Of a stretch of DNA of 64,000 nt, positions 34,466 through 59,166 are shown in pieces; position 1 is the first letter of the stretch; each line of letters opens with the position of its first letter. A program made the position numbers and the translations under genes. The notes beneath the pieces are model-generated. The model did no database searches and had not been told where the DNA came from. It saw nothing but the letters and a program-made list of their open reading frames with translations. Source of the stretch: a virus (taxonomy: Duplodnaviria > Caudoviricetes); IMG/VR virus record IMGVR_UViG_2904150443_000004, positions 1 to 64,000 of that record. The stretch is one strand, 5' to 3'.

Positions 34466-37072
34466 CTATTTTATACCCTTTTCTTTTTTTAATTTTTCCC
34501 TATATTTTTTCTTTGCTTCTTTTACTTGAGCTCTAATAATTATTTTTGAGCAATCAGCACAATATTTTTTTGCGTTATTGGTTGCCAGCACACGTAAACC
34601 GCATAACTCGCAAGCTATGTATTTGTGATTGTATTTATTGTGAATATTTGCTTTTAAATTTTCAACTATAATGTCCCCAAAAGTAGACCATAGTGTTGTT
34701 TTATGACTGCTATTTTTGTCTCCATACAGATATTTCACTAATATGTCAACAACGTAGTAAGGATCACTATTGGTTTCAAGTAGCTCGTTACGGATTTTTC
34801 TATATGTATGAGTATTTTCAAAGGACGAACTGTTCTCGTCATAGTCAATTGAAATGAAGCGTTTCTTAAGATCTAACTTTGAGTATTTCTCTATGATGTC
34901 TTGATTCATTTCCACATCAAGTGATTTCATTAAATTGATGTAATCAAACGAGCCAATATTTGTTCTATTAAAGTTGATCCTACTGTTCGGAATTAGTTTA
35001 CCCATTCGATTCACAGTGCTGTTACTCATGGGTTCTACGTTTGATTCATTTTTATCCTTGGCATGAATAAAAAAGTGTGGAACTTTAGTCCTTGTATATC
35101 GAGTTATAAGTCTGTTGATTTTTTCTGGTCTTGTTGGTTTGTACAATGTCTTAGCATAATCAATAGTAAAGTTATTCTCCATACATAGAATCTTGATCAC
35201 ATCTAGGTTAATATCATTACTGTTCCATATTTTAGTTATATCATTGCTTATTACACCAATATTACCACCAGTGTAAGCAGCCTTAAGTCCATTGTAGATA
35301 TTCTCGGTATTAATTAACTCTGCACCTGCTTTTGCCATGTTGTAGTAAAGGGGAACAATGTCCTTCATATTTCTCTCGGCAACAGTAACTAGGGTAATGT
35401 CGTTCGATACTAGACTCTTGTCACCGTCATTGTCAAACATAAGCACTTTGCTTATGGGATCTTGGCAGCTCGTGTACAGACTCTTTGTGACATACCATCT
35501 TTTCATTTCTTTAGTTATTGTATTCATCCTGATTGCATGTTCTCGATACAAATGAGGACTTCTTAAGCAATCAAGCTTCTCATTATGGTTATAGAGTGAG
35601 CAAAATATATCTCCATTAGACAGTAATCCTTTTGGATTAGACTCTTTCAGAAATATAAATTCGCAGAATGCGTAAAGATCAGGAGATATGAAAGTGTACT
35701 TTCCTTCAATATCGATTTTTCCAGCCTTCGCATTTTTAATCAGACTCTTTTTAGTTTGCTTAATGATTTCTCGACTATATACATCTTTCAGTAGTTCAGG
35801 ATATATATCTAAAGCCTGTTGGAAGTAGTTCTTGTTTGTATTAGATTCTGTTACACCAAGAACTTTTAACATTGTTCTACGATCTTCTCCAAGGGAAGTA
35901 ATGACTTCCTTGGTTGAACTAGTAAGTTCAATTAGTTCATCTTCCGTAATGTCTGTTAAAGTCTGAATCATCTGATAATTTAATTTAGCATTTCCAATAA
36001 CATCTTCCTCTTCATTACACATTCCAGCTTGGCAGCCATATTGCTTGTAATAGAGCTTATATTCATCCCATGATGAATAATACTTCCACATTTTAAACTG
36101 ACTTTTAGTGAATATAACTTCAATTTTGTCTTTTAGAATATCGTATTCTTTCCCATAAATATCTTTTACAATTCCAGTATTCATGGGCGTCTCCTTGTTC
36201 TTCTCCCTAATGAATTTATCGAAAGGGAAGGGGACAAGTAATCCCTTCATCCAAGGCATTCTTATCATAACTGCTTTACCTTGGGTACGGGGTAGTATCA
36301 TTCCGCAGCCATCAGTATGGGTGATAGGTATGTCCATTTCCTTGCGCGAGATTGAGTATGTTTTATCATCAATAAAATCTACCGTTGCTTGAACATTAGT
36401 CTCCATATCTTCAACTACAATGGACTTATCAATATCGAATCCAATCCATTGCTCTGTAGCACTGTTACATAGGGCTAGGTAGGCGAGAAATTTATTAATA
36501 TTTACCCCACCAAGTTCATTAATTCGCTCAATCGACAGGCCACACATTAATGATTTTATATACTGACCCAGAATAGACTCTTTGATAAAGAGTGTTTTCT
36601 TGGTACGGATCTGACCTGCTGAAGCAGTAAAGCAAACATACTTTTCGTTCTTGTAAGTGAATCCATCTAAAATTAAATTCTGAAGAACTTTAAAGTGATA
36701 AGCTTGAACGATTATGATGTCTTCTGTTAATGTATTAGGTTCCATGCCTAATGTCCTAGTTAGTACTGACTCAAATACTGAAACAATGTTTTTGTCTTTT
36801 ATGTATTTATCATTGAAATCACGTACAGAGTTATTGGACTGCAATTTATCTAACAACAGGCTCTTTAAGTATGTTATTCGACCATTGAGTCTTTTTATTT
36901 GATTTTTTTGTTTTTTGATAAGTACTTCATCCTGCGTCTCATCCATAAGAGAGCGTATTTTCTTTTTATAATGACGGGAAATTTTTAACTTGCTATGTAT
37001 TTTGTATTCTTCCTTTGTGTAAAAAAAGCTCGTGTCTACACTGTATAACTGCACTTGCTTGTTAAGATTTAT
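34466..37072 (-). CDS. yonO: single-subunit DNA-dependent RNA polymerase, YonO type (RdRP-related); probable ATA start at 37072
   Basis: TASAGQIR, TDGCG, RSPHL and catalytic FDNDGD motifs; next to HU as in SPbeta. Confidence 0.92.
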   Translation of the reverse strand: MNLNKQVQLYSVDTSFFYTKEEYKIHSKLKISRHYKKKIRSLMDETQDEVLIKKQKNQIKRLNGRITYLKSLLLDKLQSNNSVRDFNDKYIKDKNIVSVFESVLTRTLGMEPNTLTEDIIIVQAYHFKVLQNLILDGFTYKNEKYVCFTASAGQIRTKKTLFIKESILGQYIKSLMCGLSIERINELGGVNINKFLAYLALCNSATEQWIGFDIDKSIVVEDMETNVQATVDFIDDKTYSISRKEMDIPITHTDGCGMILPRTQGKAVMIRMPWMKGLLVPFPFDKFIREKNKETPMNTGIVKDIYGKEYDILKDKIEVIFTKSQFKMWKYYSSWDEYKLYYKQYGCQAGMCNEEEDVIGNAKLNYQMIQTLTDITEDELIELTSSTKEVITSLGEDRRTMLKVLGVTESNTNKNYFQQALDIYPELLKDVYSREIIKQTKKSLIKNAKAGKIDIEGKYTFISPDLYAFCEFIFLKESNPKGLLSNGDIFCSLYNHNEKLDCLRSPHLYREHAIRMNTITKEMKRWYVTKSLYTSCQDPISKVLMFDNDGDKSLVSNDITLVTVAERNMKDIVPLYYNMAKAGAELINTENIYNGLKAAYTGGNIGVISNDITKIWNSNDINLDVIKILCMENNFTIDYAKTLYKPTRPEKINRLITRYTRTKVPHFFIHAKDKNESNVEPMSNSTVNRMGKLIPNSRINFNRTNIGSFDYINLMKSLDVEMNQDIIEKYSKLDLKKRFISIDYDENSSSFENTHTYRKIRNELLETNSDPYYVVDILVKYLYGDKNSSHKTTLWSTFGDIIVENLKANIHNKYNHKYIACELCGLRVLATNNAKKYCADCSKIIIRAQVKEAKKKYREKLKKEKGIK

Positions 37073-37227: not shown

Positions 37228-38256
37228 GTGGAGAGCTGTACAATACAGGGATTAGTGTTAAACAACGTATACTCTGACATTATGGCATTTCTAAATCAGT
37301 ATGAGAGTAAAAACACAAGGAAAGAGTACAGAAGAGACATACAAGAATTTTTTCATTTTATATGCGGAAAAGAACTTGAATCATTGTTACCTGAAGATGT
37401 AATTAGTCGTAAGGGTACAAGATTATCTAAAAAGTGTGTTATTGAGTATCGTAATTACCTGAACTCAAAAGGTAATTCTAAAGGAACGAGAAACAGAAAA
37501 ATGTCAGCAACACGCAACCTCTATAAATTCTTACAGAGTGAAGGTTATGATATTGATCATATGATATTCGCTTTAAAACCACTCAAATACATTCCAGACA
37601 GTTATGAATCATTAACAAAAGAGGAGGTTATGACTCTAGCTGATTACTTAAAAAAACAAAGGTATGGAGATGAACTATATGCTTTTGTGTACTTAGCAGT
37701 TATCACAAGTTTTAGGGTGGACGCAATTTTAAATATAGATAAAAAGAAAGATATAAGAAAAGACAAGAACTCAGAGTTCTATCTTGTAACTGCTGTTGAT
37801 AAAAGAAATCAAAAAAGATCAATGCCTATTGAACTATGGTTATTTGAATTACTTGATAATCTTAATGGAGACACGCGCCTGTTTGAGAATCTAACAGTAG
37901 ATATTATTCATGATGCAATAACAAAGGCTGCAAAGGCTTTGGAGTTTGAAGGAAGAGTGGTAACACACTCACTAAGAAAAGTAGCGCCTACATTCGGACA
38001 AGAAAACGGGAATAGTGTGAAATCAGATATGGAACAAACAGGCCACGCCTCAGTCCAGACATTCATGAGTACATACGTGAAAGAGAAAATAAATTATGAG
38101 GATCTAGCTGGCATACAAATGTTCCGTACCATCGATGAGACGGTCTTTGATGACTTAAGTAAGGAACAGGTTTTGTCTTTACTGAAGAGCTTAAATCAAA
38201 ACGTATACAACCAACTTGCGAGACATCTGATGAGGGATGACAAAAAGGTTGTCTAA
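37228..38256 (+). CDS. tyrosine recombinase/integrase family protein, catalytic residues intact
   Basis: SAM-like N-terminal domain (NTRKEY..DI..FF); R (FRVDA), K (DKRN), HSLR, GH, Y (MSTY). Confidence 0.88.
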   Translation: MESCTIQGLVLNNVYSDIMAFLNQYESKNTRKEYRRDIQEFFHFICGKELESLLPEDVISRKGTRLSKKCVIEYRNYLNSKGNSKGTRNRKMSATRNLYKFLQSEGYDIDHMIFALKPLKYIPDSYESLTKEEVMTLADYLKKQRYGDELYAFVYLAVITSFRVDAILNIDKKKDIRKDKNSEFYLVTAVDKRNQKRSMPIELWLFELLDNLNGDTRLFENLTVDIIHDAITKAAKALEFEGRVVTHSLRKVAPTFGQENGNSVKSDMEQTGHASVQTFMSTYVKEKINYEDLAGIQMFRTIDETVFDDLSKEQVLSLLKSLNQNVYNQLARHLMRDDKKVV

Positions 38257-41864: not shown

Positions 41865-42118
41865 AGCTAGTAAAACATATTTACTAAGTGGGTGTCTAAA
41901 AGTCAATAAATATCTACTCTATAGGCTCGTTGCTCTTAAAGGGAGGTAAGATTATTTATCAAGAATATAATACAGCTAACGCGCATTCAAAAGGCAGAAT
42001 GCTTGTTCATCCCATCTAAGACCGTGATGGGCTGTTATTGGGATCTATAATGTTGTCAGGAATGTTCCGTATTCAAATTTCACGATGAGTTAATTTATTG
42101 ATATTTAATTATAAAGAC

Positions 42119-42182: not shown

Positions 42183-42788
42183 ATGAACAATAATGCAACA
42201 TATAGTAATGGTACTTGGAAAAAGGGACTCGGAACAGAACTTGAATTGATATACATAATTGAAACCACCAAATTTGATGAGGAAGTAGACAGAGATTTTA
42301 CCAACATCAAAAGATATGAGCGCAACAATATTCAAGAGGCAATCGACTTAATCAATCAATTCCAACAACATGGGTACAAAAACATTAACCTTATGACCCA
42401 GATCAATCATAACGGTGATACAATTCTAGAGGATTCGAGCGAAACAGGTATCGAATTTGCTGTTAATACATCAATCAATAAAGATTATAATGAAGTAAAT
42501 AAGCAAAAAGAATTATTAATGAATAATGAAAAACTGTTCAATGGGTTCATTGAAAAATATAAAGCAGAAAAGGCATTCATTGAGTTTAAAGACGAACAGG
42601 CAAACAATAGGGATGAACAGGGCTTACACTGGTACGAAATGCTGCTTCGTCCATTGTCTCCATATTGCCAACCAAATGGGCACATTAAATATGATGAGAC
42701 TAAAGGAAGACATGGAATTATTGCATATGATAGAGAATTAACCGCTAACGAATTAGAAGAGTATGAATTAAGAAAATGGATCTTATAA
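42183..42788 (+). CDS. protein with C-terminal DarA_C-like (defence-against-restriction) domain
   Basis: WYEMLLRPLSPYCQP.G...GRHGIIAYDRELT..EL..YEL pattern. Confidence 0.65.
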   Translation: MNNNATYSNGTWKKGLGTELELIYIIETTKFDEEVDRDFTNIKRYERNNIQEAIDLINQFQQHGYKNINLMTQINHNGDTILEDSSETGIEFAVNTSINKDYNEVNKQKELLMNNEKLFNGFIEKYKAEKAFIEFKDEQANNRDEQGLHWYEMLLRPLSPYCQPNGHIKYDETKGRHGIIAYDRELTANELEEYELRKWIL

Positions 42789-54978: not shown

Positions 54979-55752
54979 ATGAAAGGAAATAATAATATGA
55001 ATATACATATTCCTATTGATTGGGGAAGTTATATTATTTCTATTCCACTGATATTGGCGACAGTGTGGGCAGGCTTAAGGTTCTTGGCAAAAAAATATGT
55101 TGAACAAGAGTTCTCTAAAAGAATAGAAAATCACAAACACGATTTGAATTTATTAGTAGAGGCCAATAAATTTGATATTCAAAGAAAGATGTATGATTTC
55201 AATTTGTATACGACTAAAAGGCACGAAACATATATGAAGTTGTATAATTTATTTTTAGAAGCATCAAGCCGAGTAAGTAGATTTCAAGGGATCAGGCAAA
55301 TACCAGATTTTAAAAATTTCTCAAATGAAGTAATAGCGGAATATTTAAGACGTTTTAATCTGTCAGAAAGTGAATGGTTAACTATTGCTGAAAACTGGAA
55401 TAACGGAACAGATCCATACTTAGTTAAAAAAGTAGAGAGTTATTACAATATAAACGAAGTTAGGGAAATGGAGGCCGCTTATGTAAAAGCTAAAAACGAA
55501 TATTTATTAACTCGTTTATACTTGTCAAAGAAAGTAGAAAGCATATGCTTGATCTTATCTTCAAAATTGACAGAAGCTTTACTTGAGCTAGAAGAAATAT
55601 ACGATATAAACTATATTGAACAAGATATTAATTTAACCGAGTCACGAAAAAACTTAAGAAAAATACACGATGATATTAATTTGCATAGTCTAGAGTTAAA
55701 AGATGAAATGCAAAAAGAATTGTCAATTGGATATTACGACAATACAAAATAA
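54979..55752 (+). CDS. membrane-anchored helical hypothetical protein
   Basis: N-terminal TM segment followed by a helical domain. Confidence 0.65.
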   Translation: MKGNNNMNIHIPIDWGSYIISIPLILATVWAGLRFLAKKYVEQEFSKRIENHKHDLNLLVEANKFDIQRKMYDFNLYTTKRHETYMKLYNLFLEASSRVSRFQGIRQIPDFKNFSNEVIAEYLRRFNLSESEWLTIAENWNNGTDPYLVKKVESYYNINEVREMEAAYVKAKNEYLLTRLYLSKKVESICLILSSKLTEALLELEEIYDINYIEQDINLTESRKNLRKIHDDINLHSLELKDEMQKELSIGYYDNTK

Positions 55753-57265: not shown

Positions 57266-57997
57266 ATGAATCACAAAAGCGCAATCACCGATGAGGTTAG
57301 AAATAGGATAGTTAACCTGTTGAGGGGTGGTCATACAATAGTCAAAATCGAAGAGTTGACTGGTGTCCATCGAACGACTATTTTTAAGATAAAATGCAAA
57401 CTTGGATTGGTGAAAAACTACAAAAGTTTTACTTGCCTGAGTAAGAAAAAAGTCCGCGACATTCAAAGAGATCTTGATAATTTAGATCGACAGCCTAATA
57501 GTGACGATATAAAACGACTTTCTAAATTGCATGACGTTTCGGAGCCAAACATACTAAAGGTCATAAAGGAAGGGATTAATGCGGTATCAAAAGTACGCCC
57601 TCTCAAACCGCAGAAAATACAGATGATATACAAATCCCTTGAAGAAGGGAAGCAATCAGAGGAAATAATAGAAAAAACAGGTGTTTCGAGAACAACACTG
57701 GTGTATTACAGGGAACGATACAATCGCGGAAAAGATATTAGGGTATGTGCATCTTCTGATTGTGATAATACATTCTTACCACGACTGGATGGAAAGCCGA
57801 AGCTATATTGCTCCACGCGCTGTCGCGATCGCGAGAAACAGCGTAGATATAGATCATTATACTCAAAACAAAATCGGTGTCCACAATGTGGTGGTGAATG
57901 GGTCGAGCCCAACGAGACATACCGAGGAAAGCCAAAGCATTGCCTAAATTGTCAAGAGTATTACCATTTGAGATATGAAAAGAATAAAGATGTTTAG
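57266..57997 (+). CDS. multi-HTH protein with C-terminal zinc fingers
   Basis: Two GVxRTT HTH motifs; C..C...YCS.RC and CPQCG...CLNC. Confidence 0.65.
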   Translation: MNHKSAITDEVRNRIVNLLRGGHTIVKIEELTGVHRTTIFKIKCKLGLVKNYKSFTCLSKKKVRDIQRDLDNLDRQPNSDDIKRLSKLHDVSEPNILKVIKEGINAVSKVRPLKPQKIQMIYKSLEEGKQSEEIIEKTGVSRTTLVYYRERYNRGKDIRVCASSDCDNTFLPRLDGKPKLYCSTRCRDREKQRRYRSLYSKQNRCPQCGGEWVEPNETYRGKPKHCLNCQEYYHLRYEKNKDV

Positions 57998-58173
57998 TTA
58001 TTGCCATTATATGAAAGTGGAAACTAAATACTGAATTTTGTATATAAACACAAATTGGGCTCACAGCTCTATTGTGTTTTTTTGTTTATTCAAATGACAT
58101 TATATGATCACAGAACATGTATTATGTCAAGGATTTTGTTTTTTATTTTAAATTTCTTGACTATATGAATAAT

Positions 58174-58187
58174 GGAACAAACGTTCC
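58174..58187. promoter_or_regulatory. LexA (Cheo) box-like palindrome upstream of mazF
   Basis: GGAAC-AAAC-GTTCC fits the GAAC-N4-GTTC core; TTGTTA-16-TATAAT at 58189-58216. Confidence 0.6.
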
Positions 58188-58261
58188 CTTGTTAAATATC
58201 AAATATGAATTATAATAAAACTATACAGATAACTAAAATATATTAGTTTGGATGTGTAAAT

Positions 58262-58660
58262 ATGACTGACAGAGTTGTTCAATATAAGAGAGATGATATT
58301 TGGTTGGCAGATTTGGGTGGATCAGCTGGTTCTGAGCAAGGTGGAATTAGACCTGTATTATTGATTTCGAATGATATTGGGAACCGCTTTAGCCCTGTAG
58401 TTATCGGTGCTGTAATTTCTTCTGCAACTACTAAAAAGAGAATGCCAACACATGTAAGTCTGCCAGCCAACAGGCATGGGTTAATTAAAGACAGTTTTGT
58501 TGGTACTGAACAATTAAAGACAATTGATAAATGGTGTCTGATTGAAAAATTAACAACAATAGATGAAGAGACTATGGACGAAATAAACGAAGCATTGATA
58601 TTAAGCTTAGGACTGAGAGATTACATAGATAAAAAATATATAAAGAGAAAGGATGTATAA
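58262..58660 (+). CDS. mazF: PemK/MazF-family endoribonuclease (no upstream antitoxin)
   Basis: GSEQGGIRPVLLISNDIGNRFSP...EQLKTIDK, close to B. subtilis NdoA; catalytic Arg kept, Thr position is Ser. Confidence 0.9.
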   Translation: MTDRVVQYKRDDIWLADLGGSAGSEQGGIRPVLLISNDIGNRFSPVVIGAVISSATTKKRMPTHVSLPANRHGLIKDSFVGTEQLKTIDKWCLIEKLTTIDEETMDEINEALILSLGLRDYIDKKYIKRKDV

Positions 58661-58661
58661 A

Positions 58662-58817
58662 ATGTTTAAAGTTGTTGGACAAGGGATTTTTACAAAAGAG
58701 GATTTAATAAATAAATTAATTGAATGGGGGATTGTAAATGCATCGTGGGTTGTAATGGAGGCTGAGAAGAAAGGTCGTTTTGAGTATGGTAAACATAGAA
58801 TACTCGTTTTTAGATAG
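58662..58817 (+). CDS. small protein coupled to mazF (51 aa)
   Basis: Read by hand: MFKVVGQGIFTKEDLINKLIEWG...; AAAGGA RBS; hairpin terminator at 58826-58863. Confidence 0.55.
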   Translation: MFKVVGQGIFTKEDLINKLIEWGIVNASWVVMEAEKKGRFEYGKHRILVFR

Positions 58818-58907
58818 TCTTACATAAGTCACTCGATCATTAATGTAGATTGAGTGACTTTTTAATTTTAATATAAAAGAAAATACTAAAAATATCTGTT
58901 TTATATA

Positions 58908-58936
58908 TTGACTTTATATAAGTAAAGATGTATTAT
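58908..58936 (+). promoter_or_regulatory. repeated sigmaA early promoter
   Basis: TTGACT-17-TATTAT with extended TG. Confidence 0.65.
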
Positions 58937-59166
58937 CATATTAAGGCCGACAGGCAAGATAATCCAGATAATTAAAAGTAAAATAATTTAATAGTAATCA
59001 ATAAACGGAGGTGTTAATTAGTGTATAAAAATGGTAGACTTATTGACGGGAAATTATACATACATACAAAAATGGGTAACAGAATAAATCTAAAATTGTT
59101 CAAGGATGAGCATCTGAACAACTAATGAAACTATGTTTTTATAAGGAGAAAAATGAGGAGTGCAAA

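Follow-up and report, generated by a model that had tools for sequence, protein, structure and literature searches.

A mazF cassette with a LexA-type box and a small downstream partner gene in an SPbeta-like provirus

Described MazF systems and the provirus cassette

MazF ranks with the most thoroughly studied bacterial toxins, and recent work shows that host MazEF steers the lysis–lysogeny decision of SPbeta-type phages. The part of PMC10769878 available to us reports that phi3T AimX and YosL bind host MazF and render it inactive. Inhibitors of this kind have a C-terminal helix motif (AimX M14, Y18, E20, and M21; ..GYMEM.. in MazE) by which they insert into the groove of the MazF dimer. In the accessible portion of a second report (bioRxiv 10.1101/2025.11.27.690993), experiments place the small antirepressor Sar (phi3T_99; YopT in SPbeta) under the control of LexA boxes, and LexA-gated small genes are therefore an established device in SPbeta-like phages. 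Here we describe a mazF cassette in a 64-kb stretch of DNA (hereafter the window) that forms the start of the 146,367-bp IMG/VR provirus IMGVR_UViG_2904150443_000004 (window positions 1–64,000), an SPbeta-like element. The original prediction for this locus held that the phage carries its own "orphan" MazF behind a LexA-type box; its premise that host MazEF modulates lysis–lysogeny and that phages encode antagonists such as AimX agrees with PMC10769878, as far as that source was covered.

The cassette consists of a promoter with a LexA-type palindrome, a mazF gene, an open reading frame (ORF) for a protein of 51 amino acids (aa), and an intrinsic terminator. We regard it as quite likely that the box-bearing promoter, mazF, and the small gene form one functional unit under SOS-type control. 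The fuller statement, in which LexA represses a toxin-first MazF module and the small basic partner acts as the cognate neutralizer, appears on balance probable. The partner is read as a neutralizer because of its synteny with mazF, the coupling of the two genes, the absence of another antitoxin candidate in the phage, and the co-divergence of the two proteins. The features of the cassette are as follows.

58158..58163, plus strand: TTGACT hexamer, 11 nt 5′ of the box and too distant from TATAAT to be its −35 element
58174..58187, no strand assigned: LexA-type (Cheo/SOS) box, a 14-bp perfect palindrome, GGAACAAACGTTCC, with the core GAAC-N4-GTTC at 58175–58186
58189..58216, plus strand: sigma-A-type promoter with TTGTTA (−35), a 16-nt spacer, and TATAAT (−10); promoter scan, 10/12 matches
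58262..58660, plus strand: mazF/pemK-family endoribonuclease gene, 132 aa; Pfam, PHROG, and PDB matches
58647..58653, plus strand: Shine-Dalgarno-like GAAAGGA within the 3′ end of mazF, 8 nt 5′ of the ATG at 58662
58662..58817, plus strand: ORF for a basic protein of 51 aa, candidate neutralizer (antitoxin); family, synteny, AlphaFold2 model, and isoelectric point (pI)
58826..58871, plus strand: intrinsic terminator with a 13-bp stem, a 9-nt loop, and a U-rich tail; folding versus shuffles

The individual elements claimed for the locus were all recovered. As had been proposed, the toxin gene is NdoA-like: its product matches the Pfam profile PF02452 (PemK_toxin) with an E value of 6.3e-28 and 97.6 bits (cutoff 23.1) over profile positions 1–108 of 109, matches the PHROG "MazF-like growth inhibitor" at 3e-26, and aligns over residues 8–121 (114 residues) with the Bacillus subtilis EndoA/YdcE chains 4mdx, 1ne8, and 4me7 (E ~4e-34). 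The claimed lack of an upstream mazE also stands, in that the 264 bases between the preceding gene (57266..57997) and mazF hold only ORFs of 37 and 32 aa with no Pfam match, and the MazE/AbrB (PF04014) and RHH_1 (PF01402) domains are absent from the entire provirus at E ≤ 0.1. The palindrome lies where it was reported, ending its core 2 nt before the TTGTTA at 58189. Likewise, the small ORF proved to be closely coupled to mazF and followed by a terminator, since its ATG at 58662 lies 1 nt past the mazF stop codon (58658–58660), is preceded by GAAAGGA, and opens a frame whose own stop ends at 58817. The terminator stem (58826–58838/58848–58860) is a perfect 13 bp with a folding free energy of −17.7 kcal/mol (z −4.43), and none of 200 shuffles folds equally well; a consensus terminator scan, which allows only loops of 3–8 nt, missed this 9-nt-loop structure.

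The closest described relatives are the chromosomal mazEF loci of B. subtilis and its relatives (ndoAI-ndoA, or endoAI-endoA). They share with the phage cassette a close toxin homolog, a tightly coupled two-gene operon, and the catalytic arginine, with serine in place of threonine in the phage MazF. Unlike these loci, the phage cassette has no upstream MazE of the ribbon-helix-helix (RHH) or AbrB type, its partner is encoded downstream and is a basic, sequence-unrelated protein of 51 aa, its promoter bears a LexA-type box, and a canonical alr-mazE-mazF locus is kept elsewhere by a host of the cassette (genome G001). Judged from sequence, the phage module is not a canonical mazEF, because the defining upstream MazE was searched for and not found.

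The order of the two genes, with the toxin gene before that of its partner, is shared with toxin-first type II modules such as higBA, hicAB, and mqsRA, in which the partners have a DNA-binding domain; for the 51-aa protein, weak winged-helix-like resemblances (Z ≤ 4.3) were found. An SOS box at the promoter is shared with LexA-controlled toxin–antitoxin loci, examples of which are Escherichia coli dinJ-yafQ and yafNO and, reportedly, higBA of IncC plasmids. The toxins there belong to the RelE, HicA, or MqsR families and the antitoxins have recognizable helix-turn-helix (HTH) domains; unlike in these systems, the phage toxin is a MazF and its partner has no known domain.

Small MazF-tied proteins are also represented in SPbeta-type phages by AimX and YosL (phi3T/SPbeta), and AimX is likewise annotated with 51 aa. 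However, AimX and YosL mimic the C-terminal helix of MazE and target host MazF, whereas the present family has neither this motif nor similarity to them, and its member is encoded with its own MazF behind a LexA-type box rather than under AimR control. Sar/YopT is comparable in being encoded by a small gene that an SPbeta-like phage carries behind an SOS box, but it is a dimeric acidic DNA mimic of 72–111 aa encoded near sroF, in contrast to the 51-aa, basic, MazF-linked protein seen here. The 137-kb Psychrobacillus phage Perkons (MT325768, ORF37) carries a MazF with 52% identity and no upstream mazE, but its downstream 56-aa ORF38 lies outside the small family, having been rejected as a distant member on comparison, and GAAC-N4-GTTC was not seen in the upstream region read. 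The Perkons MazF follows an Spx-family gene (locus L002, 3998–4555) and may likewise be paired with a partner other than MazE.

The literature covered, which did not extend to supplementary tables (e.g., Table S5, SOS boxes, of 10.1101/2025.11.27.690993), gave no description of a MazF with such a partner or of a phage MazF cassette with a LexA box. The joining of a MazF toxin with a partner from a new family and with a conserved box of the SOS type thus looks like a new combination. If the favored reading is true, the cassette would add a family of very small MazF partners or antitoxins that is not detectably related to MazE, AimX, or YosL, and would exemplify a toxin–antitoxin-like module that uses host LexA in place of antitoxin autoregulation. 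With an SOS-wired phage MazF, the question of why a phage carries the nuclease itself could then be put to a direct test.

The partner family and its linkage to MazF

A word-based protein search with the small ORF matched only itself, tblastn against 50,697 phage records gave nothing at E ≤ 1, and megablast of positions 57900–59100 against phages returned zero matches. A contig of Paenibacillus cremeus (L003, the same as L021/L022) contains a 57%-identical small ORF directly after a 42%-identical MazF. When a two-sequence profile was compared with 1.84 billion representative proteins, 25 matches were obtained at E ≤ 1e-3, of which 23 are 51–58 aa long and match end to end; the two long matches, P0017 and P0025, were discarded as spurious repeat or ankyrin proteins. 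NCBIfam gave no match to any of the 25 aligned members, Pfam contained no relative (one of the 25 had a stray match at E 0.0043), and a profile search of the PDB found nothing better than E 0.25. Family members are named in their sources only as "hypothetical protein" of Paenibacillus species. By these comparisons, the 51-aa protein belongs to a small, previously undescribed family.

AlphaFold2, supplied with the 25-sequence alignment, predicts a bb-a-a-bb fold for the 51-aa protein with a predicted local distance difference test (pLDDT) score of 91.7. On these predictive grounds the ORF is a real gene, because of the 25 profile matches (23 of them at 51–58 aa) and the score of the model, and its assigned start at 58662 agrees with the MF(K/L)VVG start of homologs. 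Foldseek found nothing at E ≤ 1e-3 with the predicted fold, and an Atlas search with the protein found nothing at 0.9 or above. The YopT structure 2DLB is not among the matches listed by Foldseek or by VIA-align wide, which does not amount to an exclusion.

Loci were collected from the window, the large IMG/VR records L019 and L020, seven genomes, and three metagenome contigs, and eleven of them are complete (the window, L003, L019, L020, L023–L028, and L034). In every complete locus (11/11), a MazF homolog lies directly 5′ of the family member on the same strand, and both contigs that are cut at their ends (L032 and L033) start within a MazF-like C-terminus. Three genome matches (L029–L031, E ~2e-4) had been dropped before this count because they lie inside frames of 259–296 aa. 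In 10 of these loci, mazF and the partner gene overlap by up to 13 nt or are separated by up to 38 nt, and no conserved MazE-like ORF was seen 5′ of mazF in the loci compared. The MazF proteins are 39–68% identical (alignment A4, 10 of the 11 loci; L034 is at ~44% by tblastn). The divergences of MazF and partner are correlated (Mantel r 0.47), with 91 of 5000 permutations giving equally high values. The term "orphan" used in the original prediction therefore misleads, since a partner is strictly conserved downstream of this MazF.

Of 401 genomes sampled within the order to which P. cremeus belongs, seven bear the cassette, that of P. cremeus among them; all seven fall in one GTDB family (7/136), and 0 of 400 other genomes sampled from the class have a family member. 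The family is thus apparently confined to one family of Paenibacillales, and its biological reach is accordingly narrow, although the design principle of the cassette is general. A YonO-like RNA polymerase is encoded in or near the element in four cases (the window, G265, G768, and G769) but was not found with the same query in G177, G217, G315, G299, or G001/G770. The occurrence of the cassette both in YonO-bearing SPbeta-like elements and in genomes without a YonO match suggests that it behaves as a mobile moron.

We also observed a gene on the opposite strand adjoining the cassette in L019 (1828–2328), L020 (3250–3714), and L028 (G265:C55, reverse-oriented, 341–949), each on the minus strand. 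Their products have the common motif ..GSTQL.AFEEA....RT..ACGFRWNS.., and may be RsfA/Myb-like.

The LexA-type box and proposed control of the cassette

By count alone, the mazF box is within chance. The window contains two exact GAAC-N4-GTTC sequences versus 0.61 expected, and 12 of 100 shuffles gave at least two. The whole provirus also contains two, the second of which (55102–55113) lies inside a 257-aa ORF (54979–55752) and is probably a chance match; the mazF box is the only exact intergenic one in the 146 kb. The significance of the mazF box instead derives from its position and its conservation across loci. When the region from −150 to −30 of the mazF start was searched in the 11 loci, an exact box was found at −72 to −101 in six and a box with one mismatch in three more (9/11 with ≤1 mismatch), versus a background in the same loci of 0 exact boxes and 9 with ≤1 mismatch among 45,612 other positions. 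With the upstream regions anchored on the box, 9 of the 11 loci have the same layout of box, 2–4 nt, TTG.., 17–18 nt, and TATAAT. In these box-bearing loci the arms GAAC/GTTC are kept, the four central bases and the flanking positions differ, and the −35 element adjoins the box in every case; TTGACA or TTGACT precedes the box by 10–12 nt in six of the nine. As far as these alignments go, the LexA-type box is part of the cassette.

All 8/8 arm positions of the mazF box match the core, and its flanks are G..C, unlike the C..G of the Bacillota LexA box consensus, CGAAC-N4-GTTCG. In 3/3 cassette-bearing genomes checked (G265, G001, and G177, which do not include the host genome of the window itself), lexA is preceded by four boxes, one exact and three with one mismatch. 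A second unit that is likely to be under SOS control was found outside the window at G000:C1:90955-92579 (L040), where a uvrX-yolD-like operon (genes 91017–92579) encodes a Y-family DNA polymerase (IMS + IMS_C, 411 aa) and a YolD-like protein (109 aa). The TATAAT of this operon is flanked by two inverted one-mismatch boxes, AGAACGTTTGTTTG and CAAACAAACGTTCT, and the 11-mer AACAAACGTTC is common to both of them and to the mazF box. With the recurrence of the box-bearing cassette in 9 of 11 loci and the boxes at the hosts' lexA genes and at this polymerase operon, the original prediction is supported in part, and its core, a phage-owned MazF behind a LexA-type box with the 51-aa protein as a possible antitoxin, is borne out to the extent that sequence comparison allows. 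As a separate observation, a one-mismatch box, GAATGCTTGTTC, lies between genes at 41997–42008, 5′ of a 201-aa ORF (42183–42788), and could be a further LexA site.

Conservation of the palindrome could have another cause, namely that it is the cassette's autoregulatory operator, bound by the MazF–partner complex or by the partner alone, and merely resembles a LexA box. Type II modules commonly autoregulate through promoter palindromes, and the weak fold resemblance of the partner suggests that it may be a DNA binder. However, the positions that are kept coincide exactly with the LexA arms GAAC/GTTC, leaving N4 free, and the motif also stands 5′ of host lexA (3/3 genomes) and of the uvrX-yolD-like phage operon, which has no MazF. 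We consider this the least probable of the explanations weighed here.

A control region of this kind also brings to mind a 51-aa protein that is itself an SOS-triggered induction factor, functionally analogous to Sar/YopT, with mazF just an operon-mate. For such a role one can cite the phi3T/SPbeta antirepressor, a small protein behind a LexA box according to the accessible part of 10.1101/2025.11.27.690993, the status of the mazF promoter box as the sole exact intergenic box of the provirus, and the absence of an obvious Sar-like gene beside the integrase-like gene at 37228–38256. Nevertheless, Sar proteins are 72–111 aa long, mimic DNA through acidic contacts, and are encoded one ORF from sroF, whereas the small protein is basic, has 51 aa, is encoded 20 kb from the integrase-like gene, and is unrelated to the 111-aa phi3T Sar (hhalign probability 0.07%). 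Moreover, the small protein comes after MazF even where a genome has no detectable YonO-type phage. A Sar-like function thus seems very unlikely. The integrase-like gene itself (37228–38256, plus strand) encodes a 342-aa tyrosine-integrase-like protein (Phage_int_SAM_1 + Phage_integrase) beside the YonO-like gene, and neither a Sar-like gene nor an exact LexA box was seen next to it. From its position and fold class, this protein could be a master repressor of the SroF/MrpR(YopR) type.

Predicted MazF activity and the proposed mechanism

The phage MazF looks like an active RNase rather than a decoy. Its R30 aligns with the catalytic Arg25 of B. subtilis MazF and its S53 with Thr48, a conservative change; among 10 cassette MazF proteins, the arginine is kept in nine (lysine in L019) and Thr or Ser occupies the Thr48 position in all 10. 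The part of PMC7354611 available to us names Arg25 and Thr48 as key catalytic residues and describes the active Mycobacterium tuberculosis MazF7 as having serine at the threonine position. Retention of the arginine and of Thr/Ser makes an inactive decoy less likely.

A second, canonical mazF is present in all three host genomes checked, and the phage MazF is 52–54% identical to the canonical MazF of cassette-bearing hosts. In G001, the only genome in which the neighborhood was read, the canonical gene comes after alr and an RHH-type mazE and encodes a protein that closely resembles B. subtilis MazF. Branch lengths in a MazF tree, which included as outgroups six of 13 viral MazF loci (L004, L007, L009, L012, L014, and L015; the remaining seven were left out), are ~1 for the cassette copies versus 0–0.07 for the host copies, and by this measure the cassette MazF proteins are fast-evolving copies.

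In the favored reading, that of a LexA-repressed MazF module with a neutralizing partner, host LexA would sit on the box next to the −35 element in an undamaged lysogen and keep the operon low. DNA damage, the signal that also induces SPbeta-type prophages, would lead to RecA-stimulated cleavage of LexA and to derepression of the operon. One bicistronic mRNA would then yield MazF first and the 51-aa partner next by coupled translation. MazF is predicted to be a catalytically competent, sequence-specific endoribonuclease, and the small protein would be its cognate partner, most likely neutralizing it by direct binding. The pair would constitute a toxin-first, type II-like module whose transcriptional control has been handed to LexA in place of a DNA-binding MazE. 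The net outcome would be a pulse of RNase activity as the prophage is induced, triggered by damage and buffered by the partner. Its use might lie in the cutting of host and/or phage transcripts, or in stabilizing or guarding the element.

Several points weigh against this reading. The cassette loci are homologous, and their counts are thus not independent events, such that binomial figures overstate independence. Two of the 11 loci (L024 and L026) are without the box–promoter layout, and LexA control is therefore not obligatory for the mazF–partner pair. The cassette MazF proteins do not form a single resolved clade in the tree but a polytomy with host MazF proteins and that of Perkons, by which a single origin is neither shown nor excluded. 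Co-induction of a toxin and its neutralizer from one mRNA leaves net toxin activity unexplained. The small protein is basic in 10 of 10 pairs examined (pI 9.4–9.8, net charge +2.5 to +3.5; 9.6 for that of the window), whereas MazE-type antitoxins have acidic MazF-binding parts, and a consistently basic partner is atypical for a MazE-like antitoxin. It has no similarity to AimX (hhalign probability 0.09%), and the GYMEM or M...Y.EM helix motif shared by MazE, AimX, and YosL is absent from it, as it is from all six frames of the provirus. None of 7998 longer candidates is a fused MazF–partner protein, which is weak evidence. Finally, the best structural neighbors found by VIA-align wide reach a Z of only 4.3, within the stated chance range of that tool, and are chiefly small winged-helix-like DNA binders; because of these neighbors, the 51-aa protein could be a nucleic-acid binder instead of an inhibitor.

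This last point leads to a rather doubtful alternative in which the small protein acts as a regulator, a minimal DNA or RNA binder of winged-helix-like type, that tunes the operon or the targets of MazF and does not inhibit MazF directly, leaving the toxin restrained only by LexA repression or by a cross-reacting host MazE. Such a role is in keeping with the basic pI, with the possession of a canonical MazE by the hosts, and with the weak neighbors of the predicted fold (sCTP, Z 4.3; winged-helix domains of RecX, AhrC, and MCM, Z 2.5–3.7); the nearest named Atlas clusters are also of winged-helix type (DpnI_C and DsrD, score 0.76), at a level that the tool labels "often chance." However, every structural and Atlas score lies within the range that the tools describe as chance, 51 aa leaves scant room beyond one function, and strict 1:1 linkage with MazF (11/11) is typical of toxin–antitoxin pairs. 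In addition, no conserved second operator is evident besides the LexA-type box.

We also examined the provirus for UACAUA sites. A 2026 preprint, in the part of it available to us, describes a strict 6-bp site without stating its letters, and UACAUA as the B. subtilis MazF motif is our own six-base reading. In the sense strand of provirus genes, TACATA occurs 102 times versus 52 expected from synonymous-codon shuffles and ranks first of 60 same-composition hexamers for over-representation. The excess sits in the non-structural genes (94 versus 46.9 expected, z 9.5), with 8 versus 6.6 in the structural block. A phi3T control (L047/L048) has a similar ~2-fold excess in both gene classes, and the cassette transcript itself has two sites, at 58622 and 58821. 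The excess may reflect MazF-based regulation or codon-pair context.

A more far-reaching interpretation is a phage-owned form of the MazF checkpoint for which arbitrium phages otherwise rely on the host, gated by LexA, firing at prophage induction, and held by a basic 51-aa antitoxin of new fold, whose RNase would preferentially attack UACAUA-rich transcripts of the host and of the phage's non-structural genes and so help to time the early-to-late switch. Transcripts of the structural genes, which are not enriched in the motif, would be spared, and MazE would have been replaced with control left to the SOS repressor. T4 RegB offers a comparison for an RNase-timed switch of this kind. We consider this proposal possible but unlikely.

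The same motif excess could be accommodated if the phage MazF acted on the host MazEF checkpoint described for arbitrium phages, by titrating MazE or by forming mixed dimers with host MazF, and the small protein were an accessory. In line with this, the phage MazF is 52–54% identical to the canonical MazF of the hosts and matches B. subtilis MazF at E ~4e-34, the covered part of PMC10769878 places lysis–lysogeny in phi3T under host MazEF, and UACAUA is ~2-fold in excess of expectation in non-structural genes, read on their sense strand. But the catalytic residues are kept, hence the protein is no dead decoy, the cassette also occurs in genomes without a YonO-like match, and the invariant small partner would be left unexplained. 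An action through host MazEF is accordingly judged improbable, and the LexA-repressed module with a neutralizing partner is the reading that we retain.

Elsewhere in the provirus, the structural genes form a minus-strand block (1–34 kb), after which plus-strand genes run on at length and include the mazF cassette. The 861-aa protein encoded at 34466–37054 (minus strand) has 51% identity to the YonO-type RNA polymerase of SPbeta/phi3T phages. The product of the gene 5′ of the cassette (57266–57997, plus strand) is 243 aa long and contains a CGNR-type zinc finger besides two HTH regions (HTH_7 and HTH_23). Two viral matches obtained with the small ORF, L017 and L018, proved to be spurious, the match being a chance shared word, EYGKHRIL, inside a reverse-transcriptase-like gene. 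These IMG/VR loci (L017, 6–4176; L018, 27–4197) encode an 819-aa protein, after which come a near-repeat of its C-terminal stretch, with Asn in place of many residues, and then a 433-aa ORF. We take this layout to resemble a diversity-generating retroelement with its reverse transcriptase, unconnected to the MazF cassette.

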